DNA of 32,000 nucleotides, taken from Collibacillus ludicampi (GTDB lineage Bacteria; Bacillota; Bacilli; Tumebacillales; BOQE01). The position numbers were made by a program, and so were the translations under genes. The DNA lies in assembly GCF_023705585.1 (NCBI RefSeq), contig NZ_BOQE01000001.1:337642-369641 (forward strand). The letters run 5' to 3'. This document shows, piece by piece, positions 735-30,977 of the stretch (within the stretch, counting starts at the first letter, position 1; every line of letters starts with the position of its first letter). The notes under the pieces are model-generated. The model was not told where the DNA came from. It saw only the letters and a list, made by a program, of their open reading frames with translations, and did no database searches.

Positions 735-802
735 ATCAATTTTAAAAGTCAAAAATTTTTTTCAGGCTCATCCGAATATCTGTGGGAAGTGGAGTCAGTC
801 GA

Positions 803-832
803 TTGTACTGATTTTCCCAAAAAGTGTAGAAT
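803..832 (+). promoter_or_regulatory. Candidate sigma-A promoter (TTGTAC - 18 nt - TAGAAT) for the small downstream ORF
   Basis: The hexamers were read directly at 803-808 and 827-832, about 40 nt upstream of the likely GTG start. Confidence 0.3.
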
Positions 833-869
833 GGAAAGAGAATTGTATATGTATAAGGGAGGGGTTACG

Positions 870-1127
870 GTGCCGGCAGAGCGCACATGGCACAACCTGG
901 AGCTTCCTGAAGAGGCACAACTGGTTCGAAAAGAATTATTCGAATACAGCAGTGACAAGGGAGACTTCATCATCGAATTATTTGAAAATGTAAAAGGTGA
1001 ATATTACGCGATAGGTACTCCACGCCATTCTGACAAACTGATCATTTATGGTTCGCCCGTGATGAGCGATTCATTTATGGCTATGCAAACCGTAATCGAA
1101 AAAATCGAGCGAGAAGGTGCCTGTTAG
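870..1127 (+). CDS. Small hypothetical protein of about 85 aa
   Basis: This is the ORF 789..1127 frame. AAGGGAGGGG at 855-864 sits 5 nt before the in-frame GTG at 870. No family was recognised. Confidence 0.5.
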   Translation: MPAERTWHNLELPEEAQLVRKELFEYSSDKGDFIIELFENVKGEYYAIGTPRHSDKLIIYGSPVMSDSFMAMQTVIEKIEREGAC

Positions 1128-1150: not shown

Positions 1151-1375
1151 CCTTGAAAATGAGTGCTTGGGTGGGTGTATTGCTTTGCGCTTGGGTTCGA
1201 TGAAGGTCGTCCCGCCGGGATTCTTAACAGAGGTTGCGGAACGACCTTCAACTCACCTCTTCGTCGCAAAGCGATACAACCCACCCAAAAGCCACTCCGT
1301 TTCTTGAGATAGCCTTATACTTCTTCCCTCACAAGAAACTTTTCATCCTCTGATGGCGCCGCTTGCGGCATGGAG
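1151..1375. repeat. Long imperfect palindromic intergenic repeat, copy A (diverged, with a 44-nt internal insertion at 1295-1338)
   Basis: Left arm ...GGGTGGGTGTATTGCTTTGCG...GAAGGTCGTCCCGC pairs with right arm GCGGAACGACCTTC...CGCAAAGCGATACAACCCACCC. The tail TTTTCATCCTCTGATGGCGCCGCTTGCGGCATGG is shared with the copy at 18339-18517. Confidence 0.85.
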
Positions 1376-1425
1376 GGCCGTATCAAGAGTGCCGCCCTGG
1401 AGCAAATTCATCTTTCTTGGCTATG

Positions 1426-2505
1426 TTACGATTTGAGCCATTCCACCGTTTTCTGATCGAGCTTTTTCACAACGGCAGCCAACAATTTTGCCGCATGATG
1501 CAGATCGTCATGATGAATGATTGACGCATGACTATGGATATAGCGTGTAGGAAAACCGATCACCAGTGAGGGAACACCTTGGTGTACAAGATGAGCGCGC
1601 CCCGCGTCAGTTCCTCCACCGGAAATCGCATCATACTGATAAGGGATTCCTTCTTCTTCCGCCGTATCTATGACGAGATCACGCAGCTTTGTATGCGGCA
1701 CCATCGAGCCGTCATAGATCACAATCGTCGGGCCTTTCCCGCACTTGGCGTTCGGCATGTTTGCAGAGTCGGCAATCCCCGGCGTGTCCCCCGCGATACC
1801 TACATCCAAAGCAAAAAATACATCAGGTTCGATCATATATGTACTCGTTTGTGCACCGCGAAGACCTACTTCTTCCTGAACAGTGGCCCCGCTGTAGACC
1901 ACATTGGGGTGGTCAATTCCTTGCAAGTTTTTTAATACCTCAATGGCGACCGCACAGCCGGCACGGTTATCGAGAGCTTTTGCCATGTACATTTTTTCGT
2001 TTGCCATTACGGTAAATGGACAAATCGGTACGATTGGATCTCCGGGACGAATTCCCATCTCTTTGGCATGTTCGTCACTCGTGGCGCTTACATCGATAAA
2101 CATATGCTTGATATCGACAACCTTGTTTCTCTCTTCAGGCGGTAAAACATGCGGCGGCTTGGAACCGATCACACCGATGATATCCCCTTTGCGCGTTTTG
2201 ATTTTCACGCGCTGTGCCAGCATGACTTGAGACCACCACCCTCCGAGCGTTTGAAATTTGATAAAACCATCTTTCGTTATATGGGTCACAATAAATCCGA
2301 TCTCGTCCATGTGCCCCATCATCATGACCTTGGGACCGCCCGCCAGCCCTACCTTACGTCCTACGATGCTTCCCAGGTTATCTGTATACACTTCATCGGT
2401 GAGTGGCTTTAAATACGCCTGCATCAATTCGCGTATTTCTTGTTCCTGTCCCGGGACGCCCGAGGCCTCCGTCAGTTCCTTCAAAATGGTTGTCAGATCC
2501 TTCAT
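1426..2505 (-). CDS. M42 family glutamyl aminopeptidase (YsdC/YtoP/PepA-like)
   Basis: A 359-aa ORF with typical M42 motifs ([30 protein letters not shown]). RBS AAAGAGGG lies upstream of the ATG. Confidence 0.9.
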
Positions 2506-2757: not shown

Positions 2758-3090
2758 ATGGTTTCAATGATTCCTATGACCGTTGACGGGCAAACGGTCA
2801 TCGGTATTCATGTAGCCCTTCCCAAAACCAATCTGCTCGCGATTACAACGAACATTGGATACATCATGTGCGGGGCGCTTGATATCCAACTGTTAAATGA
2901 ACGTCTGAGCGAGAGGGAAATCATTGCGGCAAGGATGGTTGGTGTAAAAACGCTTGAGGAACTTTTGAAAGGAACGGTGGAATCTTCAACATTTAAGGCA
3001 CAGGAACTCGGAATCGTTCCCGGAACAAGCGGACGCGAAGCATTGCGTATCATGCTCTCGGCACAAACGAACACCCCTGCACGCTCTTGA
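2758..3090 (+). CDS. yunC: DUF1805 (YunC-like) protein
   Basis: LPKTNLLAITTNIGYIMCGALD resembles B. subtilis YunC. GAGGAGG lies 6 nt before the ATG at 2758, so the 2716 start of the ORF track is unlikely. Confidence 0.75.
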   Translation: MVSMIPMTVDGQTVIGIHVALPKTNLLAITTNIGYIMCGALDIQLLNERLSEREIIAARMVGVKTLEELLKGTVESSTFKAQELGIVPGTSGREALRIMLSAQTNTPARS

Positions 3091-3100
3091 ATATATGCGG

Positions 3101-3253
3101 CCAACGGGAGTATGCTTCGCTTTGATTCGGTGAGGTCGTCTCAGCGGGTATATGCTTTGCGCTTATGCTCCGTGAAGGTCGTCTCGCATATATTAATATT
3201 CAAAAGTTGCGAGACGATCTTCAAAGTCGCTATTACGTGCGAAGCATATGACC
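3101..3253. repeat. Palindromic repeat locus B: a partial outer left arm (about 3106-3145) followed by a complete inner unit (3146-3253)
   Basis: TATGCTTCGCTTTGATTCGGTGAGGTCGTCTCAGC is followed by GGGTATATGCTTTGCG...GAAGGTCGTCTCGC-loop-GCGAGACGATCTTCAAAGTCGCTATTACGTGCGAAGCATATGACC. The outer/inner junction is the same as at 30571-30586. Confidence 0.85.
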
Positions 3254-3314
3254 TCTTAATATATCAAAGAAGCGGAACAACCTTACCTCAATGAATCAGA
3301 TCGGTTCTAAGACC

Positions 3315-4010
3315 TTAGGCAGACGTTCTCGCTGCCTCCAACAGAGCATCCAGCAAAGACCGTAATTTTCCCTTTTCCTCCTCAGGTATAGTTTCAGAGA
3401 GTCGGGCCGCAGTAATTGGCAGCATCCATTCGTTGATCTGATCAATGGCCGAGCCGGAGATTTCCAAATACCTGTTTACATATTTATTGCAAATCCGCTT
3501 TCGTAATGATGGAATCAATAACTTAACAATTGCGGGTAGTCCTGATGGTAAAGCACCGTATTTCAGTATCAGAATGGTTCGGGCGACATCAGCTAAAGGA
3601 TTCCCGCTGGTTCCGGTCGTCCAGTCAATAATGACGGGACCTTGACGAGTCAACATGATATTATCAGGATGAAAATCCCCATGGCATATTTGATTTCCGT
3701 CAGGCAACCGATCGAGGTGCTCTCGAATCAATTGTTTATCGCTGTCCGTTAAACAGTCCACCTGTTCAATTCTTGCTCTTACGATATTCTTTTGTGAAGG
3801 TAAGCCGCTGCTTTCGGTTTTATGTAATTCATAATGAAGTTCGGCTAACCTTTTCGCTTCTTTGTCGACATTCCACAGATTCCTGGATATGTACGAAGTC
3901 ATCGTGATCCCAACTATTCGCTCATATACAATCCCTTTTTTTCCTTCGACGTCAACCATTCCAAAGACTTTCGGGACAGGAAGACCGAGTTTATCTACCG
4001 CCTGGCTCAC
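3315..4010 (-). CDS. Aminoglycoside/choline-kinase-type phosphotransferase (APH family). The called ORF lacks the N-lobe, and the frame is open further upstream to 4124 (see findings).
   Basis: HGDFHPDNIM catalytic-loop and IIDW motifs are present. The only canonical start is GTG 4010, yet the same frame upstream encodes RAKIGQGYTAEIYAWGEYEIVKLFY (Gly-loop plus Lys). Confidence 0.7.
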   Translation of the reverse strand: MSQAVDKLGLPVPKVFGMVDVEGKKGIVYERIVGITMTSYISRNLWNVDKEAKRLAELHYELHKTESSGLPSQKNIVRARIEQVDCLTDSDKQLIREHLDRLPDGNQICHGDFHPDNIMLTRQGPVIIDWTTGTSGNPLADVARTILILKYGALPSGLPAIVKLLIPSLRKRICNKYVNRYLEISGSAIDQINEWMLPITAARLSETIPEEEKGKLRSLLDALLEAARTSA

Positions 4011-4354: not shown

Positions 4355-5599
4355 TCAGTGAGAGATCTCCTCTAAACGAACAGCGCGAGTATGCACCGTG
4401 TGGCTCCATTCCCTGTTATTCCGGGTGAAATATCCTGCAACCGTGACTGGAAACCAAGTAAATACGAATAGAGGGAAGATAATCAGACCTAAATACGCTT
4501 TCCAAGGAACGCGTTCAAGCAACATGGCCAACGGCATCTGCAGATAAAGAAGCACGTTCACAACAATCCAGAACCAGTTCGGCAGGATCGCCGACAGGTT
4601 GGTCAATTGGAAAAACTCAGGATAACCGACTTGCAAGTAAAGCATGATCGATGTGAACAACACGATCAAAAGACGCATCGGCTGGAACAAGTACAATGCC
4701 GAATCAAACATGGACAAGTTTCGTGTAACAATCGCTTTGCGGAGCAGAGGGAACATGTATTTACGTGCACAGTCAAAATGCCCCTGCATCCAGCGAATCC
4801 GTTGACGCATAGAAGCCTTCAAAGTCAAAGGTTTCTCATCGTATACTTTCGCGTTATGTGCCCATACAGGATTAATGCCACGATCCACGCAACGCACGGT
4901 GAACTCCAGATCCTCTGTGAGGCTGGTAGCCCCCCATCCGATCTCTTTCAGGAGTGCCGTTTCGATGCAAATCCCGGTACCGCCTAGAGCATTCGGTAAA
5001 TTTAAATTATATCGGGCCAATTGCCACATACGGTTGGTAAACCAGTAGGCGACGGCGTACGAGATACTGATCCAGGAATCGAACGGGTTCTTCGTATCCA
5101 GGTACCCCTGAATCACACGCGCCCCCTGACATAACTTCTCGTTCATTTCACGGAGGAAGTTCTTCGCGACAAGGTTATCCGCGTCAAACATGACAACCGC
5201 ATCATACTCTTTCTCCATTTCCCAGAGGCGTTCTAACGCCCATTCGATCGCATAACCTTTCCCGCGTTTCTCTTTGTCATGACGTTCCAGTGCGATCGCA
5301 CCATGTTTTCTTACGATATCCGCCGTATGATCCGTGCAGTTATCGCAAATCACGAAGATATCATACATGTCTCTGGGATAATCAAGATTCTGTAGATTTT
5401 CGATCAGTGGCGCGATAACCTCTTCTTCGTTGTGCGCCGCAACAAGTACTGCAAATGTCTTCTCCGGTGGATTTTTTATTTCTTCACTTTTTTTCTTCAG
5501 CCCGGCCAGTGACAGCGCTACTTGGTAAGCACTAATCGCTCCAGTAAGCCCTTGTAATGCTATGAAAGCATCATTCGCCAGACTATGCAGAATCGACAT
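4355..5599 (-). CDS. Membrane-bound family-2 glycosyltransferase (processive beta-glycosyltransferase type)
   Basis: GT2 motifs VLVAAHNEE, DNCTD, FDADN and QRIRWMQG are flanked by N- and C-terminal hydrophobic segments. GAGGGAG lies 6 nt before the ATG at 5599. Confidence 0.85.
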   Translation of the reverse strand: MSILHSLANDAFIALQGLTGAISAYQVALSLAGLKKKSEEIKNPPEKTFAVLVAAHNEEEVIAPLIENLQNLDYPRDMYDIFVICDNCTDHTADIVRKHGAIALERHDKEKRGKGYAIEWALERLWEMEKEYDAVVMFDADNLVAKNFLREMNEKLCQGARVIQGYLDTKNPFDSWISISYAVAYWFTNRMWQLARYNLNLPNALGGTGICIETALLKEIGWGATSLTEDLEFTVRCVDRGINPVWAHNAKVYDEKPLTLKASMRQRIRWMQGHFDCARKYMFPLLRKAIVTRNLSMFDSALYLFQPMRLLIVLFTSIMLYLQVGYPEFFQLTNLSAILPNWFWIVVNVLLYLQMPLAMLLERVPWKAYLGLIIFPLFVFTWFPVTVAGYFTRNNREWSHTVHTRAVRLEEISH

Positions 5600-5909
5600 T
5601 GAAAACTCCCTCACTTTTTTTCGTGTGGCGTTTTTCCAATTTCGTTAAGATTCTACCACAACTTCAGCTTCTAAGAAACCTTGTTCATTCAATAACTTAC
5701 TATAACATTTATATATTTCACGTACAAGTAGATTCCATTGTTTCGAAAAATCCATTCTTTTACTTGCTCGAACGTTTTCTTGGTTACACTCTCCAAGTCT
5801 ATGATTGTTCGAATCTCGGTAGTACCCGGATGCGATTATTACAAGAGGGAAGATTCTTCTGAGAAAATCGTGTACAATGGGGAGGTGAATATATGTAGCA
5901 GAGGGTGAA

Positions 5910-6521
5910 ATGATGAGTCATCTGTTGGAGTATTTGGCCCATGTAACGAGTGACATCGTTGCAGGAGCCGGGTATTGGGGCATTTTCGTTGCTATGTTCG
6001 TTGAAAGCATGGGTATTCCTTTACCGAGCGAAGTCACCATGCCCTACGGAGGATATCTTGTTTCCTTGGGGAAACTCGGATTCTGGCCTGTCGTCATCGC
6101 CGGGACGATCGGGAATATTTTAGGTTCCCTTGTGTTTTATATCATCGGTGCTACAGGGGGAAGGGTCTTTCTCAAGAAATTCGGTAAATATATTTTGTTT
6201 AACGAAAAACATTTGGATACGGCAGATCGGTGGTTCTCCCACTACGGTGAAGCGACCGTATTCTTCGGCCGTCTATTGCCTGTGGTACGCACATATATCT
6301 CTCTCCCTGCTGGCATCTCTCGCATGCCGCTCGGCAAATTTTTATTTTACAGCACGATCGGTGTCATCCCTTGGTGCTGGTTATTTACTTACATCGGCAT
6401 CAAGCTTGGACAAAATTGGGAAGAAATTCACGGGATCTTTCACTATCTCAACTATGTGGTCTTACTCATCGTCATTCTCATCTTGCTTCTCTTTTGGAAA
6501 AAAGGTCTGCGCAAACGGTGA
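5910..6521 (+). CDS. DedA family membrane protein
   Basis: A 203-aa polytopic ORF with DedA-like FVESMGIPLPSE and GRLLPVVRTYISLPAG motifs. RBS AGAGGGTGAA precedes it. Confidence 0.85.
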   Translation: MMSHLLEYLAHVTSDIVAGAGYWGIFVAMFVESMGIPLPSEVTMPYGGYLVSLGKLGFWPVVIAGTIGNILGSLVFYIIGATGGRVFLKKFGKYILFNEKHLDTADRWFSHYGEATVFFGRLLPVVRTYISLPAGISRMPLGKFLFYSTIGVIPWCWLFTYIGIKLGQNWEEIHGIFHYLNYVVLLIVILILLLFWKKGLRKR

Positions 6522-6603
6522 TCGCCGTTTGTACAGACCTTTCTCCATAACGATTCTTTCTCCCGAACTGCTCAACCTTTTATCCTGTTTTCAATAGAGC
6601 CCT

Positions 6604-7779
6604 CTATACAGACGAGTCTTCACTCGTCTGAACAAGTTTCTGAAAATAAAAAAGCAGAAGTAAAGCGACTATAGACATGATCGCTCCTGAATAATAGGGC
6701 AAAGTCATTCCTTTCGCGTAAAGAAGGCCGCCGACCGGGGGACCGGCGATTCTGCCCAGAGAATCGAGTGATCCTAATAATCCCAACGCATTCCCCTGCC
6801 CAAATGTCGTCCGTTTTGAGATCAATGCACTGACGCTCGGTCGAATCATTCCGTTTCCGGCTCCAAATACAGCCAGGAAAATGGCGCCTGTTACCATATC
6901 GGTCACCCTGACGATCAATAAAAATCCGATCGCCGATACCAGTAAGCCGATCTGGATCACGCGGTCTTCACCGAAGCGCTTGATCAGCTTGCCGATCAAT
7001 CCTCCTTGAATAAAGGCGCCAACGACCCCCATGACCACAAACACATATCCCAATTGGACAGAAGTCATATGCAACTTATCGACAGCATAGAAAGCAAATG
7101 TGCTTTCAAGACCGGCCAGAGAAAAGCTCACAACGAACGACATGATATACAGATAGGCGAGAGAGCCACGAAATGCTGACCAGCGGGACGTTTTTTTACC
7201 AGGTGATTGGCGCTTCTCTTTCGGTAATGATTCTTTCAGAACGATCGACGCGACGATAAACGTTAACGCGGCTAACATCCCCGCGAAGAGAAACGGTTTA
7301 TCGTAACCCCATTTGGATAAAGAACCGCCAATGGCAGGACCAAAAATAAAACCTAGACCTGCCGCCGCACCGATCATCCCCATCCCTTTTCCGCGCGTCT
7401 CTTCTGTGGTTATGTCAGCCACGTAAGCCATCGCGGTCGGCATCGCAGCAGCTGACAAGGCTCCTGCCAGGATTCTCGAAACGAACAGTTGCCACAATTC
7501 CGTCGCTAGACCAAAAGCGACGTACGCGATACCAAATCCAAACAATCCGATCAACATCACAGGTTTTCTGCCCATCCGGTCGGAGATATTTCCCCATATG
7601 GGTGAAAAAAGCAAGTTCATGAAAGAATAGGTAGCCATGAGCCAACCGAGAGTCAGAGAACTGGCACCAAGTTCGCGTGCATACAAAGGAAGAACCGGAA
7701 TGACAATGCCGAAACCGAGCATGACCAAAAACATGACGAGAAAAAGGACGGGCAAGGCTTTTCGGGTAGAACTCATCAT
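6604..7779 (-). CDS. MFS transporter (drug/H+ antiporter-like, 12 TM)
   Basis: A 391-aa hydrophobic ORF with the MFS motif GNISDRMGRKPV. RBS GGAGAGTGAGGTGAGG precedes it. Confidence 0.9.
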   Translation of the reverse strand: MMSSTRKALPVLFLVMFLVMLGFGIVIPVLPLYARELGASSLTLGWLMATYSFMNLLFSPIWGNISDRMGRKPVMLIGLFGFGIAYVAFGLATELWQLFVSRILAGALSAAAMPTAMAYVADITTEETRGKGMGMIGAAAGLGFIFGPAIGGSLSKWGYDKPFLFAGMLAALTFIVASIVLKESLPKEKRQSPGKKTSRWSAFRGSLAYLYIMSFVVSFSLAGLESTFAFYAVDKLHMTSVQLGYVFVVMGVVGAFIQGGLIGKLIKRFGEDRVIQIGLLVSAIGFLLIVRVTDMVTGAIFLAVFGAGNGMIRPSVSALISKRTTFGQGNALGLLGSLDSLGRIAGPPVGGLLYAKGMTLPYYSGAIMSIVALLLLFYFQKLVQTSEDSSV

Positions 7780-7867: not shown

Positions 7868-9136
7868 TTATCGTTGTAGCTTATGTAACAACTCGACAAG
7901 CGTATGCCGATCATGATTTGCCTCGACCAGGTCTTTCGGATAATAGAAACGATGATACACTTCAGGAACCAATGAATGAATGAGTTTAGATGCTTCGCAT
8001 ACATCACGAAGTCTCCCGTCATCCCCCACATATTTTATCCCTTGTTTATAAAGATACCCTCCTGTGGAGATCGCTTTGTAAGACAAATAAGAGTCTGAAG
8101 GAATGCCGGCATCGTCAAAAGCATGTTGAATTTCAAGGAGAGTATCCACATCCAATGGGTGCCGACAAGCGACTGAAGAGAGTAAACGTCTGTCGCGAAA
8201 CCTAGCCGCCAAATCACGGAGCGAAAGGTCTTCTTCTTCCCTCCAGCATGAAAATGCATAATGCATGACCGTGTCATCCAACTGCAGAAACTCCTCAACT
8301 GTGATTTCCGATTCCGGTTTTTCAAAGAATGGAACCAATTCTTTTGGACAATACTTCAGTTGTCCCTCCTGGAACAGATCACGGGCACGGCTTAAAATTT
8401 TCCCTAAAAGCACGTCGCTTCCAATGGTCGTGGAATGAAGATACACCTGTGTATACATGAAGTAGCGTGCCAACAAATACTGTTCGACCGTATGCATCCC
8501 GGATTGCTTGATAACAATATCATGCCCGAATGGTCTCATGATTCGTATCAGACGCTCCAACTCAAACCGTCCGTACGTCACGCCTGTATGTAACGCATCA
8601 CGCAACAGATAATCCATGCGGTCAACATCCATTTCTGAGGCGATGAGACGCTCCAACAGGGGAAATTTCTGCCCTTTACTGATCACGGAGAGAAGGTCGG
8701 AAGGGAAATCTGTATCGATCTGAGACAAGATGCCGTGAATCTCGCGATCCTCCATGAGAATACGCCTCGTCCACGTTTCATGGTGGGTTTTGAAAACGCC
8801 CTCGAATGCATGAGAAAAGGGTCCGTGCCCGATGTCATGAAGCAACGCGGAAGCCAGAGCCAATCGTACCATTCTCTCATCTTGCGGCCAATTATGATTG
8901 CGGGAAAAATGGGAGAGCACTTGCCGCATGATTTCATAGGTTCCCAACGAATGTGTAAATCGGCTATGTTCAGCTCCGTGAAACACAAGAAACGATGTTC
9001 CCATTTGCCGGATCCTGCGAAGCCGTTGGAATGCACGTGTGTTTATTAATGACCAAACGAACGGGTCTTTGACATAAATGTAATCGTGCACAGGATCTTT
9101 AAATACTTTTTCTTCGCGAAAATGCAGGTCGGCCAC
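7868..9136 (-). CDS. HD-domain phosphohydrolase (YwfO / dNTP-triphosphohydrolase-like)
   Basis: HSLGT...LLHDIGHGPFSH HD signature in a 422-aa ORF. GTG start is preceded by GGGGGGAG. Confidence 0.85.
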   Translation of the reverse strand: MADLHFREEKVFKDPVHDYIYVKDPFVWSLINTRAFQRLRRIRQMGTSFLVFHGAEHSRFTHSLGTYEIMRQVLSHFSRNHNWPQDERMVRLALASALLHDIGHGPFSHAFEGVFKTHHETWTRRILMEDREIHGILSQIDTDFPSDLLSVISKGQKFPLLERLIASEMDVDRMDYLLRDALHTGVTYGRFELERLIRIMRPFGHDIVIKQSGMHTVEQYLLARYFMYTQVYLHSTTIGSDVLLGKILSRARDLFQEGQLKYCPKELVPFFEKPESEITVEEFLQLDDTVMHYAFSCWREEEDLSLRDLAARFRDRRLLSSVACRHPLDVDTLLEIQHAFDDAGIPSDSYLSYKAISTGGYLYKQGIKYVGDDGRLRDVCEASKLIHSLVPEVYHRFYYPKDLVEANHDRHTLVELLHKLQR

Positions 9137-16061: not shown

Positions 16062-16080
16062 ATTCACTTCCTCCTTCAAA

Positions 16081-16192
16081 GGCCTCCGGAGTTAGCTGAC
16101 GGGTTCGGGTGAAGGATCCCCCGCCTGTTGGTTACCAATAGGTTCACCCCAAAAGTTGGTTCCTCCGTACTTGATCAACAAGATTCGGCCAT
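16081..16192 (-). promoter_or_regulatory. c-di-AMP riboswitch (ydaO-yuaA class)
   Basis: The minus strand reads GGCCGAATC...ACGGAGGAACC...GGGGTGAACC...CACCCGAACCCGTCAGCTAACTCCGGAGGCC. This matches the remembered conserved blocks of the ydaO motif, and it abuts the RBS of the LysM/3D gene. Confidence 0.75.
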
Positions 16193-16275
16193 AAAATGTA
16201 CGCAGAATAGTATACCGATTACCGATCAAAACTTCATTAGTAATCGAATGGTGCAGGAGGAAGAAAGTACATATC

Positions 16276-18338: not shown

Positions 18339-18517
18339 CTTGAAAAATATGTAGTTTGGCGGCGTATGCTTTGCGTTCGTGCTCCGTGGAGGTCGTCTCG
18401 CTGGGAATATGTTTAGTCGTTGCGAGACGACCTCCAAAGTCGCTGTCTCACGCAAAGCATTACGCCCACCCAAAGTCACTTTTCATCCTCTGATGGTGCC
18501 GCTTGCGACATGGGGTA
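18339..18517. repeat. Palindromic repeat, copy D (the cleanest single unit), filling the dapF to downstream-gene spacer
   Basis: CTTGAAAAAT..GGCGGCGTATGCTTTGCG-TTCGTGCTCCGT-GGAGGTCGTCTCGC-loop-GCGAGACGACCTCC-AAAGTCGCTGTCTCA-CGCAAAGCATTACGCCCACCC..ACTTTTCATCCTCTGATGGTGCCGCTTGCGACATGG. It starts right after the dapF stop and ends 20 nt before the next start codon. Confidence 0.9.
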
Positions 18518-19363
18518 CTACTTATAAAATATTCCGTCACAAACGAATGTGGCAGGACCCGTCATATACACTTTTCCGTTTTCTTCGCTCCATTCGATCT
18601 CAAGATCGCCACCGAGTAAATGAACGAGAACTTTGCGGTTCAATTTCCCATTGAGGATGCCTGCGACGACCGCCGCGCAAGCACCTGTCCCGCAAGCTTG
18701 TGTGACGCCGGAACCTCTTTCCCATACGCGGAAGATGATTTCATCGCGCGAGACCACTTGAATAAACTCCACATTGACCCGTTCGGGAAACAAGGGGTGA
18801 TGTTCCAATTTTGGCCCCAAGTTTGTTACGTCGATTGTTTCCACGTCATCAACAAAGATGACCGCATGGGGATTGCCCATGGACACACAGGTAATCCGAT
18901 ACGTATTTCCATCGACTTCAACCGGTTCCATGATCATCTCCGATTCCGGATCCCCTACAACGGGGATGTCTTTCTTACGTAAGCGGGGCTTTCCCATATC
19001 GACTGTGATCGATTCCACCCGATTCTCACCGTTTAGATGCAACCTCGCCTCAACGATTCCCCCCAGGGTCTCGATCGAGAATATTTTTTTATCGGTAAGC
19101 CCTCTCTCATACACAAATTTCGCCACACAGCGCAAGCCGTTTCCACAGTTCTTTCCTTCCGACCCATCCTGGTTAAAGATGCGCATTTTAAAATCGGCCT
19201 GTTCGGAGGGAGCGATTAAGATCATGCCATCAGAACCGATGCCCGTATTCACATCACTTACACGGATCGCTACATCCGCCAATTCCTCTTCCCGTAAAGT
19301 TTCTTCAAATAAATTGACATAAATATAATTGTTCCCCAACCCGTGCATTTTTGTAAATTTCAC
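18518..19363 (-). CDS. dapF: Diaminopimelate epimerase
   Basis: [15 protein letters not shown] and the two catalytic-Cys contexts ([14 protein letters not shown]). A GTG at 19363 behind GGTGGGGGGG is the likely start, with the ATG at 19384 as the alternative. Confidence 0.9.
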
Positions 19364-23253: not shown

Positions 23254-23469
23254 TTCATTGTATTTCTGCACAAGAAAATTTTTCATGTTCTGATTGCCGC
23301 TTGAGCATCATGGGGTAACCATTCGGTTGAATCGTGACTGTTGAACGGTCACCAGTTCAAAATATGTTGAATGCGAGAACTCAATGTTAGGTTTTAGACG
23401 TTAAATCGAGAGTTAGTTGTAAAATTTTTCGAGTTGCATCGCGCTTATACTATGGTACAGTAAGAAAAG

Positions 23470-23590
23470 AATAGCCGAATCTTCAAATGTGAAGAACGGG
23501 GGACTTTTTTTAGGGGTGAATCTTAAAACTTCGAGTTTTAAGTAGGGTGACTCCTTGACCCGAACCCGTCAACTAACCTCGTAGGCAATT
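23470..23590 (+). promoter_or_regulatory. c-di-AMP riboswitch (ydaO-yuaA class)
   Basis: AGCCGAATC...ACGGGGGAC...GGGGTGAATC...GACCCGAACCCGTCAACTAACCTCGTAGGC. It aligns block for block with the copy at 16081-16192 and sits directly upstream of the RBS of the second LysM/3D gene. Confidence 0.75.
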
Positions 23591-23613
23591 GATAAAGGAG
23601 AGTTGTACTAGGA

Positions 23614-30512: not shown

Positions 30513-30797
30513 CTTGAAAAATTTCAGTTTGGCGGTCTTATGCTTTGCGTTCGCGCTCCGTGGAGGTCATTTCAGTGGGTATATGCTTTGCGTTCATGCT
30601 CCGAGAAGGTCGTTTCTCATGAAATTATAATTATATGTTGCGAAACGGCCTTCAAAGTCGCTATTACGCGCAATGCATATACCCCCATATCGTTCATAAG
30701 GTAGCGATGCGACCTCCAAAGTCGCTGTCTCTCGCAAAGCATTACGCCCTCCTAAAGACACAATCCAATCTTGTGGTGGAGCCGTTTGCGGCTTGAA
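30513..30797. repeat. Composite palindromic repeat, locus E: an outer unit (30513-30797) with a complete inner unit (30577-30684) inserted in its loop
   Basis: The outer arms are TATGCTTTGCGTTCGCGCTCCGTGGAGGTC and GACCTCCAAAGTCGCTGTCTCTCGCAAAGCATTA. Between them lies GGGTATATGCTTTGCGTTCATGCTCCGAGAAGGTCGTTTC-loop-GAAACGGCCTTCAAAGTCGCTATTACGCGCAATGCATATACCC. Confidence 0.9.
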
Positions 30798-30807
30798 TAT
30801 CAGTCAA

Positions 30808-30977
30808 GCAGTAAAGAAGCCTCTTCCTGAGAGGAAGAGGCCGACTCACGATATGAGCAGCTCTTATCTCTCAGAATCCTGTGATTCTGCAGGAGTTAGC
30901 ACCGTGCATAAGCAGTCGCTCATGTCGGTTGCCGGGCTTCATCGGGCCAGTCCCTCAGCCTTCTCTTGATAAGAGGC
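30808..30977 (-). promoter_or_regulatory. S-box (SAM-I) riboswitch with an intrinsic terminator
   Basis: The minus strand reads CTCTTATCAAGAGAAGGCTGAGGGACTGGCCCGATGAAGCCCGGCAACC...GGTGCTAACTCCTGCAGA...GAGAGATAAGAGC. This is followed by the GCCTCTTCC-TCTC-AGGAAGAGGC hairpin (30819-30841) and TTCTTTAC. Confidence 0.9.

Follow-up and report, generated by a model that had tools for sequence, protein, structure and literature searches.

What are the long inverted repeats that lie between genes around positions 18339-18517 of a 32,000-nt stretch of Collibacillus ludicampi DNA (contig NZ_BOQE01000001.1), and how did they come to be there? This stretch is the window to which all position numbers refer, and the comparison contigs are designated L002 to L011. 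The original prediction described imperfect palindromes at four intergenic loci (1151-1375, 3101-3253, 18339-18517 and 30513-30797), and likened them to ERIC, Correia, REP or MITE repeats (MITE, a miniature transposable element with inverted repeats). All four loci were found where they had been placed, and every copy is indeed intergenic. The repeats form a previously undescribed family that is real, has recently spread between genes and is restricted to one lineage. The palindromes are bracketed by a pair of ends that are modular, independent and widely conserved, and that are also present around an IS110-family transposase gene. With moderate confidence we read the loci as transposase-less derivatives of an IS110-type insertion sequence (IS) that carry self-nesting hairpin modules and are comparable to MITEPpu9, with an asymmetric tail as the left end and ATTTTCARG as the right end.

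To define the units, a covariance model was built on an alignment of eight cores, five of which lie in the window and three at a nearby locus of the same species. Its search of the window recovers exactly four units without interruption (1174-1281, 3146-3253, 18360-18467 and 30577-30684), all on the + strand with scores of 95-108 bits (E 1e-26 to 1e-30); the opposite strand scores 37-45 bits. Two split host units, at 3107-3145 plus 3254-3300 (degenerate) and at 30535-30576 plus 30691-30750, bring the number to the six that had been claimed. A repeat finder sorts the arms of the four loci into families D1-D5, and the arm pattern has five matches in L002 where 0.03 would be expected by chance. 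At 18339-18517 the two-stem architecture was confirmed, with an outer stem TATGCTTTGCG / CGCAAAGCAT and an inner stem GGAGGTCGTCTCGC / GCGAGACGACCTCC that is a perfect 14 bp; the internal loop is asymmetric, with 13 nt on one side and 15 nt on the other. The focal 191-nt unit is predicted to fold with -79 kcal/mol on the + strand and -77 on the - strand, compared with an average of about -50 for shuffled sequences (z = -6.6 on both strands). Taken alone, the inner palindromic units are inverted repeats throughout, each with a core of ~108 nt that forms a single hairpin. Open frames across the composites lack starts and ribosome-binding sites and gave no homologues in a protein search, and no promoter or terminator consensus was found when the units were scanned for these signals.

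Three subfamilies can be distinguished: A (1161-1297), B (18349-18479 and the outer unit at 30535-30750) and C (3146-3253 and 30577-30684). The loci at 3101-3253 and 30513-30797 do contain several units as had been described, but the arrangement is nested, unit within unit, rather than tandem. Each type-C unit of the window occupies the apical loop of an older one (C2 that of the type-B unit B2, C1 that of a decayed A-type host), and nesting reaches three levels in a composite of L002 that we write A2[B3[C3]]. The insert always follows the GGG of the host loop, with junctions of the form gggTATATGC...GCATATAccc or gggcaTATGC...GCATAtgcc; those of C1 read gggTATATGC...GCATATGAcc and those of C2 read gtgggTATATGC...GCATATAccccc. 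Written as gggTA[TATGC...GCATA]TAccc, the nested junctions have TA on both sides, and because TA is its own reverse complement this junction TA is inseparable from an extension of the palindrome. The inner stems are more decayed in hosts than in inserts, which fits the proposed order of insertion. All nested inserts are oriented like their hosts, an agreement that was not used as evidence because the independent events are few and nested composites may be copied whole.

The hairpin is kept by compensatory changes. Across the eight-unit alignment 91.9% of the cells are paired, compared with 84.3% for shuffled alignments, none of 500 of which attained the real value, and with 38-48% when the register is slid. 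Both partners have changed in 13 of the 34 pairs, where shuffling gives 6.1 +/- 1.5 and sliding 0-4. Compensation is also visible in single copies, with TGCTTGGCG / CGCCAAGCA in B3 and TGCATTGCG / CGCAATGCA in C3; C2 has the right-arm change alone. Conservation of the unpaired loop, another feature of the original prediction, is borne out within subfamilies, where the internal loops are 86-97% identical, the stems 83-89% and the apical loop 42-67%. Type A stands apart, its internal loop differing from that of B and C by more than the stems do (67% identity for the loops, 77-80% for the stems).

The focal copy also carries a tail, TTTTCATCCTCTGATGGTGCCGCTTGCGACATGG, and a flank, CTTGAAAAAT. Tail and flank (CTTGAAAAT in the type-A copy) had been described as belonging to the repeat unit; they are instead two non-inverted ends of a composite and are also found free of any palindrome. 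The left end is the tail (CCATGCCGCAAGCGGCACCATCAGAGGATGAAAA, pattern TCTGATGGYGCCGCTTGCGGCATGG), which has two mini-hairpins and closes with the hairpin CATC-AGAG-GATG just ahead of the junction. The right end is ATTTTCA(A/G)G. The tail and CTTGAAAAT do not form terminal inverted repeats (TIRs), and have in common only the 6-bp TGAAAA/TTTTCA. A metagenome scan with the tail pattern recovered three contigs, L009, L010 (a Thermacetogeniaceae metagenome-assembled genome, MAG) and L011 (a Peptococcaceae-like MAG), in which the 34-nt core is almost identical to that of the window and the surroundings are unrelated. The near-identity in L010 and L011 indicates that the core is conserved across Bacillota classes. 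None of the three contigs contains the palindromic units of the window, and no Rfam family was found at their tail sites. The L011 tail, together with a CCTGAAAAT flank, surrounds a palindrome of another kind (58 nt), and in L010 there are just 30 nt between tail and flank, giving a 72-nt mini element; the right-hand termini of these two elements read TTTTCGAG or TTTTCAGGG. The window itself contains an end-only copy at 23271-23315, where the tail is joined directly to the CAAGAAAAT flank and which represents either a minimal element or an unoccupied site. The composites as a whole range from 45 to 440 nt.

Several observations concern these elements and their tails individually. The L011 palindrome (8860-8935) is of the type GTCATCCTGAGCG...CGAAGGATC, and a four-fold tandem CTGACTA repeat follows the tail at 8975-9000. 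The L010 mini element is flanked by an rtcB RNA-ligase gene and a gene for an old-yellow-enzyme-type oxidoreductase (6278-7609 (-) to 4945-5952 (-)), ~50 nt upstream of the start of the latter. A tail read as a tiny open reading frame (ORF) or peptide C-terminus was rejected, there being no ribosome-binding site or start and variation at third-codon positions in both candidate frames. Resemblances of the tail to hammerhead, K-turn, T-box or CRISPR-repeat-like motifs found no support in Rfam and were likewise set aside.

At the outer boundaries of the composites there is no multi-base target duplication, only the trinucleotide YAG on both sides in about half of the copies. YAG stands 6 nt before CATG in four of the eight tail-bearing elements and directly after TTTTCNNGG in four of the eight. 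The two members of the pair agree in L009 (TAG/TAG) and in L011 (CAG/CAG), though not in all copies. The left YAG of the focal copy is itself the dapF stop codon. Copies that abut stop codons number two in all (dapF, TAG, 18518-18520; a DUF1805 gene, TGA, 3088-3090), and if the recombination core is of the AG type, TAG-type stop codons may serve as integration points.

The connection with IS110 comes from L009. There the tail, in reverse complement, is found ~250 nt upstream of an ORF in which the domains DEDD_Tnp_IS110 (E 2e-38) and Transposase_20 (E 9e-24) were recognised. In the tail alignment that includes L009, columns 12-47 are essentially invariant. About 110 nt after the transposase stop codon L009 has TTGTTTTCAGGGTAG, which agrees with TTATTTTCAGGGCAG of L011 at 13 of 15 positions and resembles ATTTTCAAGG / ATTTTTCAAG of the window. 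Both composite ends thus match sequences that bracket the IS110-family gene of L009, in one autonomous copy whose boundaries we infer. Elements of the IS110 family have no TIRs, long non-coding ends (of which the left is the longer in the IS110 subgroup) and a short recombination core (PMC11208160); the left non-coding region of L009 is longer than the right. The missing TIRs and the missing multi-base target duplication of the composites are likewise as expected for IS110 elements (PMC11208160). Within the L009 non-coding region, CAGGGTAG is in the same sense as the right end and TAATACTA is antisense to the adjoining flank. These guide-like 8-mers have the polarity described for such elements, with left-donor and right-target guides (10.1101/2025.10.25.684509). 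Homology of the palindromic units to the L009 non-coding region past the tail was considered and dropped, as the alignment was not convincing. Because the ends are separable from the palindromes and stand around an IS110 gene, they point to an IS110-type, TIR-less, site-specific mobilisation and not to one of the ERIC/Correia type or of the RAYT/IS200-IS605 type. From the comparison with ERIC, Correia, REP and MITE repeats there remains that the elements are dispersed, intergenic, non-coding, hairpin-forming and mobile; the TIR/TA or RAYT/IS200-IS605 route is what the ends speak against.

The distribution of the composites indicates recent movement. The dapF stop and the ywhD start are 199 nt apart here and 43 nt apart in L003, whose DapF is 82% identical. 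The spacer between the FtsW and aminotransferase genes is 613 nt here and 77 nt in L007, a sister species from the same sample (permease 92% identical), and the distance from the S-box terminator to the mtnW ATG is about 330 nt here and about 51 nt in L007. At all three orthologous sites the relative lacks the whole composite, ends included. The empty sites that the original prediction had proposed to look for thus exist, and together with the nested insertions they show that the family behaves as a mobile element. A covariance-model search of 21 kb of L007, of L008 and of 27 kb from L003-L005 found no unit, and the tail is absent from the 21 kb of L007. By comparison, about 46 kb of host-species DNA was read and holds five palindrome-bearing loci plus one end-only copy, or ~1 locus per 9 kb. 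The window is near-identical to the 142-kb contig Ga0618274_000035 of the Joint Genome Institute (JGI) metagenome 3300077723 (stretches L002 and L006), with few single-nucleotide polymorphisms (SNPs), some of them inside repeats; these indicate that the window derives from a very close, non-identical strain or assembly. At position 1181 the window carries T, which makes a T.G wobble, and L006 (14464) carries C, which makes a full pair; at 30593 the window again has T and L002 (about 9906) C. The genes of the host are Bacillales-like (YwhD, DapF, and an MtnW-type RuBisCO-like protein preceded by an S-box), and the closest named relatives of its DapF, at 72-75% identity, are from Effusibacillus species.

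Searches likewise gave the family no named match. Rfam finds in the window only two c-di-AMP riboswitches and one S-adenosylmethionine (SAM) riboswitch above gathering thresholds, leaving the repeats without a match, and permissive scans of two repeat loci returned noise only. Among plasmids, phages and viruses the units and the tail found chance matches only. The left-arm pattern had a single chance match, in Enterobacter, among ~185,000 species-representative genomes. The right-arm pattern had no match in a metagenome collection, one that evidently does not include the source sample. Neither a six-frame "spurious ORF" protein search for further copies nor a literature search by sequence string gave a match.

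From these data we propose a structure of two layers. The outer layer would consist of the unlike ends of an IS110-family element in which the recombinase gene and the non-coding RNA region have been replaced by a long hairpin, and the inner layer of ~108-nt palindromic modules (A, B and C) that have repeatedly nested in one another's apical loops. An IS110-type recombinase encoded elsewhere in the genome would recognise both ends and excise the element in the form of a circle or of a strand-transfer intermediate. Integration would follow at intergenic sites that are rich in A/T and have an AG-type core; MITEPpu9 is moved by ISPpu9 in this manner. Insertion would leave a very stable hairpin in the transcript or DNA of the spacer. 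Parts of this scheme are deductions, namely that the ends belong to the IS and not to its target, that the host genome holds a cognate recombinase, that the core is AG, and the route by which modules nest. The register of the modules supports the proposal, as A1 and A2, and likewise B1 and B2, share all modules in register and so look like copies of one composite. The absence of whole composites, ends included, from the empty sites supports the ends as parts of the element, the absence of both ends from 21 kb of the sister species supports an IS110 derivative, and the identity of the tail across classes suits an IS end that moves horizontally.

Several results pull in the other direction. An IS110 transposase is tied to the ends by a single autonomous example, L009, and one copy does not suffice to fix its boundaries. 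At its right junction the guide-like 8-mers are not significant (P about 0.07), a guide search at the left junction gave chance-level 7-mers only, and no junction promoter reaches 9 of 12 matches with either placement of the boundary. The flanks of eight copies are A/T-rich without a clear consensus, whereas IS110 elements are strongly target-specific. No IS110 gene or other transposase was found in the 46 kb of the host species. The C-type and B3 units lack these ends, so that nesting needs either a second mechanism or the propagation of pre-nested composites; C-type units could have entered apical loops by a second activity, perhaps one that targets TA, or by the copying of pre-nested composites as units. 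The taxonomic spread of the ends rests on three metagenome matches, the scan of the genome collection having used the palindrome arm, and the number of independent insertion events is small. If another transposase were the mover (e.g. of the IS630 or IS3 family), GGGTATATGCTTTGCG is the sequence that its terminal repeats would match. A bolder version of the proposal, which we consider doubtful, is that the elements are high-copy hitch-hikers of an RNA-guided IS110-type recombinase and have been freed from the strict target specificity usual in that family, either integrating by DNA structure (palindrome centres and hairpin tips) or using the internal loops as orphan bridge-RNA-like guide loops. 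Such escaped specificity, if true, would be a new mode of bridge-recombinase mobilisation with a natural hairpin cargo that inserts into itself.

A different explanation of the same end pair, possible although on balance unlikely, makes it a target instead of a terminus. Tail and ATTTTCAAG would together form a small REP-like repeat centred on a palindrome of 12 bp, TGAAAA/TTTTCA, and serve as a preferred landing pad for unrelated elements; the L009 IS110 element, the A and B palindromes of the window and the L011 palindrome would each have landed independently at its centre. The palindromic units would then be classical TIR-type MITEs moved by another transposase into the centres or tips of small palindromes, with targets TA in gggTAccc within one another's loops and AAAAT^TTTTC in the pad. 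As under the IS110 reading, the entry of C-type units, which lack these ends, into apical loops would be left unexplained. Such a pad would be in keeping with the tendency of IS110-family elements to target repeated intergenic palindromes (PMC11208160), and with the hairpin that ISPpu10 needs in the left flank of its target (10.64898/2026.03.19.712850), since the tail has CATC-AGAG-GATG before the junction. Nothing is conserved outside the end pair, as if the pair itself were the dispersed repeat, the same point is occupied by three different kinds of insert, and every nested insert sits at a palindrome centre with TA on both sides. The pad is, however, absent from all three empty sites, so that pad and palindrome would each have had to reach every site, and it was not found in 21 kb of the sister species. 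The module-for-module match of A1 with A2 and of B1 with B2 suggests copies of one composite rather than independent landings, a horizontally moving IS end accounts more readily than a passive target for 34 nt that are nearly identical across Bacillota classes, and the matched YAG repeats lie outside the end pair, not at its centre.

The remaining explanations concern the palindromes themselves. The conserved 5' GTAG-type tetranucleotide and the arrangement as doublets of a short 20-35-nt REP are hallmarks of REPs and REPINs. Spread of REP-doublet-like hairpins by a single-copy IS200/IS605-like Y1 transposase acting on single-stranded DNA would fit imperfect hairpins of ~100 nt with compensatory pairing, their high density in one lineage, and their occurrence in one orientation at four of five loci in a replichore with uniform GC skew. 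The folding strand also seems favoured, with 18 G.T wobbles against three A.C mismatches on the + strand. We nevertheless regard this route as very unlikely. The units are not doublets of a 20-35-nt REP and have no 5' GTAG-type tetranucleotide, no RAYT or Y1 transposase occurs in the 46 kb of the host species, and the IS110-linked ends would be left unexplained. Five loci are too few for an orientation bias, and the wobble skew carries little weight because the structure was predicted on the + strand and the strand energies are not consistently different. Selection for a cis-acting RNA in operon spacers and leaders (an mRNA stabiliser, an RNase III site or a protein-binding site, with the internal loop as the recognition site) would account for the strong covariation, for internal loops conserved like stems beside a drifting apical loop, and for the position of two copies within transcription units, one between dapF and ywhD and one in the mtnW leader beyond the S-box terminator. 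Close relatives have no units in these spacers, and the neighbouring genes therefore do not need them. Units moreover face either way with respect to transcription, also stand between convergent genes, are nested up to three deep, and have no Rfam family and no promoter or terminator signals; conserved arms are equally expected if only copies with intact arms multiply. This too is highly improbable in our judgement. Metagenome assembly as the source of the sequence could make one suspect mis-assembled repeats or a segmental duplication, but the flanks are unrelated at all loci, the copies are 66-90% identical and differ by 10-34% and by subfamily, the independent JGI contig (L002/L006) has the same loci with few SNPs, and the loci are fixed between conserved single-copy genes. 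Duplication, which the original prediction had named as an outcome that would overturn it, can be regarded as ruled out, and an artefact of either kind is next to impossible.

Among described elements the closest counterpart to the transposase-less IS110 derivatives that we favour is MITEPpu9 of Pseudomonas putida, a derivative of ISPpu9 without a transposase that is mobilised in trans via minicircles (PMC12288879). ISPpu9 has unlike A and B end boxes, a small inverted repeat in the A box and AG at both boundaries (PMC12288879). The composites resemble this pair in their unlike IS110-family end boxes, the left with a small inverted repeat, in the absence of TIRs, in their intergenic location and perhaps in an AG-type dinucleotide at the boundaries (here YAG in about half of the copies, not always as a matching pair). 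MITEPpu9 differs in its cargo, the small RNA gene ssr9, in its number of about 8 copies and in its strict insertion into REPs (PMC12288879), whereas here a self-nesting hairpin cargo occurs at ~1 locus/9 kb in a Bacillota host, with no common target and no sequence similarity, and mobilisation is put forward by analogy. A sequence-specific target would be expected of an IS110 derivative (PMC12288879), and the flanks of eight copies show no clear consensus. As in classical MITEs (PMC3184786) the elements are small and transposase-free, with a long stable stem-loop and both filled and empty sites; the composite ends do not have the TIRs of that class.

Other repeat families share features of the palindromes. 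ERIC (IRU) and Correia (NEMIS) repeats are likewise intergenic imperfect palindromes of 100-170 bp, often transcribed, that form long stem-loops (PMC3184786, PMC2229807); internal insertions give size variants, and copy number differs among related strains. They are found in Proteobacteria and have true TIRs and a duplicated TA target (PMC3184786, PMC2229807), whereas the composite ends described here are not inverted repeats, TA occurs at nested junctions only and there is no sequence similarity. REP, BIME and REPIN elements have in common with our family intergenic hairpins with compensatory change and mosaic modules, and REPs are known targets of IS110-family elements (PMC11208160; 10.64898/2026.03.19.712850). 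REPs are, however, 20-40 nt long and REPINs are RAYT-dependent doublets, whereas the units here are single hairpins of ~108 nt with a large conserved internal loop, and the annotated loci (46 kb) hold no Y1 transposase. BOX of Streptococcus pneumoniae is also an intergenic Firmicute repeat in which conserved end modules surround variable middle modules (PMC3184786). In BOX the middle modules follow one another in tandem instead of nesting, and its sequence is not similar. In the Bacillus cereus group, the bcr1 repeat is bounded by TIRs and duplicates a specific target. It too is a Firmicute intergenic MITE-like element, of about 155 bp (PMC3184786), and shows no sequence similarity. Finally, the units recall the bridge RNA or seekRNA of IS110 elements in their stem, large conserved internal loop and distal stem-loop, and they sit where the IS would have its non-coding RNA (PMC11208160, PMC11187229). 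No match of at least 6 nt, same-sense or antisense, was found between the internal loops of types A, B and C and the element ends or flanks beyond the unit. Neither the units nor the L009 non-coding region has an Rfam family, and there is no alignable similarity between them beyond the tail.

Table 1. Coordinates of the composites and their modules. Positions are those of the window except where L002 is given; nested units are shown in square brackets.
Feature	Position	Strand	Description
Composite A1	1152..1376	-	read tail-first; sequence, covariance model and boundary comparison
A1 left end (tail T)	1340-1376		
A1 small hairpin H2	1298-1339		
A1 type-A palindrome	1161-1297		closed by GAGTG/CACTC
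A1 core unit	1174-1281		94.8 bits
A1 right end	1152-1160		CTTGAAAAT
Composite A3[C1]	3077..3300	-	degenerate type-A host, no recognisable tail; sequence, blastn of units and comparison with the A2 host in L002
A3 host left arm	3107-3145		
A3 host right arm	from about 3275		decayed, GCGGAACAACCTT
Type-C unit C1	3146..3253	+ (covariance-model strand)	complete, nested in the A3 apical loop; 103.2 bits, E 6e-29
Focal composite B1	18339..18517	-	sequence, covariance model (106.6 bits), folds and empty site in a relative
B1 tail	18480-18515		
B1 extended stem and type-B unit	18349-18479		
B1 core	18360-18467		
B1 right end	18339-18348		CTTGAAAAAT
End-only copy	23271..23315	-	both ends abutted, no palindrome; minus strand reads CCCCATGATGCTCAAGCGGCAATCAGAACATGAAAAATTTTCTTG; repeat family D4
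Composite B2[C2]	30513..30797	-	
B2 tail	30756-30797		diverged
B2 host arms	30535-30576, 30691-30750		
B2 right end	30513-30522		CTTGAAAAAT
Type-C unit C2	30577..30684	+	nested in the B2 apical loop; 107.9 bits, E 2e-30
Composite A2[B3[C3]]	L002 7680-8120		triple-nested; about 0.8 kb past the right edge of the window

The composites occupy several kinds of spacer. A1 lies between convergent genes, one at 789-1127 (+) and an M42 peptidase gene at 1426-2505 (-). A hairpin like H2 (GTTTCTTGTGAG...CTCAAGAAAC) stands between tail and palindrome in the type-A composites only (in A1, and at about 8046-8088 of L002) and is found in none of type B. The right-end-like CTTGAATAT of A3, at 3077-3085, overlaps the stop codon of the DUF1805 gene. 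The B1 tail directly follows the dapF stop codon on the minus strand, and the B1 right end is 20 nt upstream of the ywhD start. B2[C2] is located between the terminator of an S-box riboswitch (30818-30842) and the ribosome-binding site and start codon (30498) of mtnW. The SAM (S-box) riboswitch itself was identified by Rfam at 30861-30975 (-) and with its terminator makes up a region, 30818-30975, that controls the mtnW operon. The 285-nt nested repeat after the terminator makes the leader ~280 nt longer than in the sister species and leaves the riboswitch intact. Adjoining A2[B3[C3]], at 8120-8190 of L002, there is a clean intrinsic terminator (gaatctcc...gggagattc plus a T run). The sister species has no such terminator in its 77-nt spacer, and this site therefore differs by more than the repeat.

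The window contains further features of a different kind. The two c-di-AMP (ydaO-type) riboswitches, at 16066-16200 (-) and 23463-23602 (+), score 93 and 100 bits, and each is upstream of a gene with LysM and 3D domains that probably encodes a cell-wall hydrolase; together the two make up the longest inverted repeat of the window (I1). An APH-type phosphotransferase ORF at 3315-4010 (-) encodes 231 aa from a GTG start, but its Pfam match begins at profile position 45 and its N-terminus looks incomplete. The JGI counterpart (L006 11361-12281) encodes 306 aa, and the difference in length may come from another start codon or from a frameshift.

A lineage-specific family of small intergenic hairpin repeats would by itself be routine, as such repeats are common. 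MITEPpu9 is the only transposase-less IS110 derivative that we found described, and if the present loci are derivatives of this kind, their dense burst in a member of the Bacillota would mean that IS110-type recombinases can drive MITE-like expansions; the unconserved flanks then raise the question of how target choice works. The three-deep nesting with compensated pairing provides a clean natural system for insertion at hairpin tips. For the host, the copies within the dapF-ywhD operon and the S-box-mtnW leader could affect the fate of these mRNAs, and such copies can mislead gene callers.

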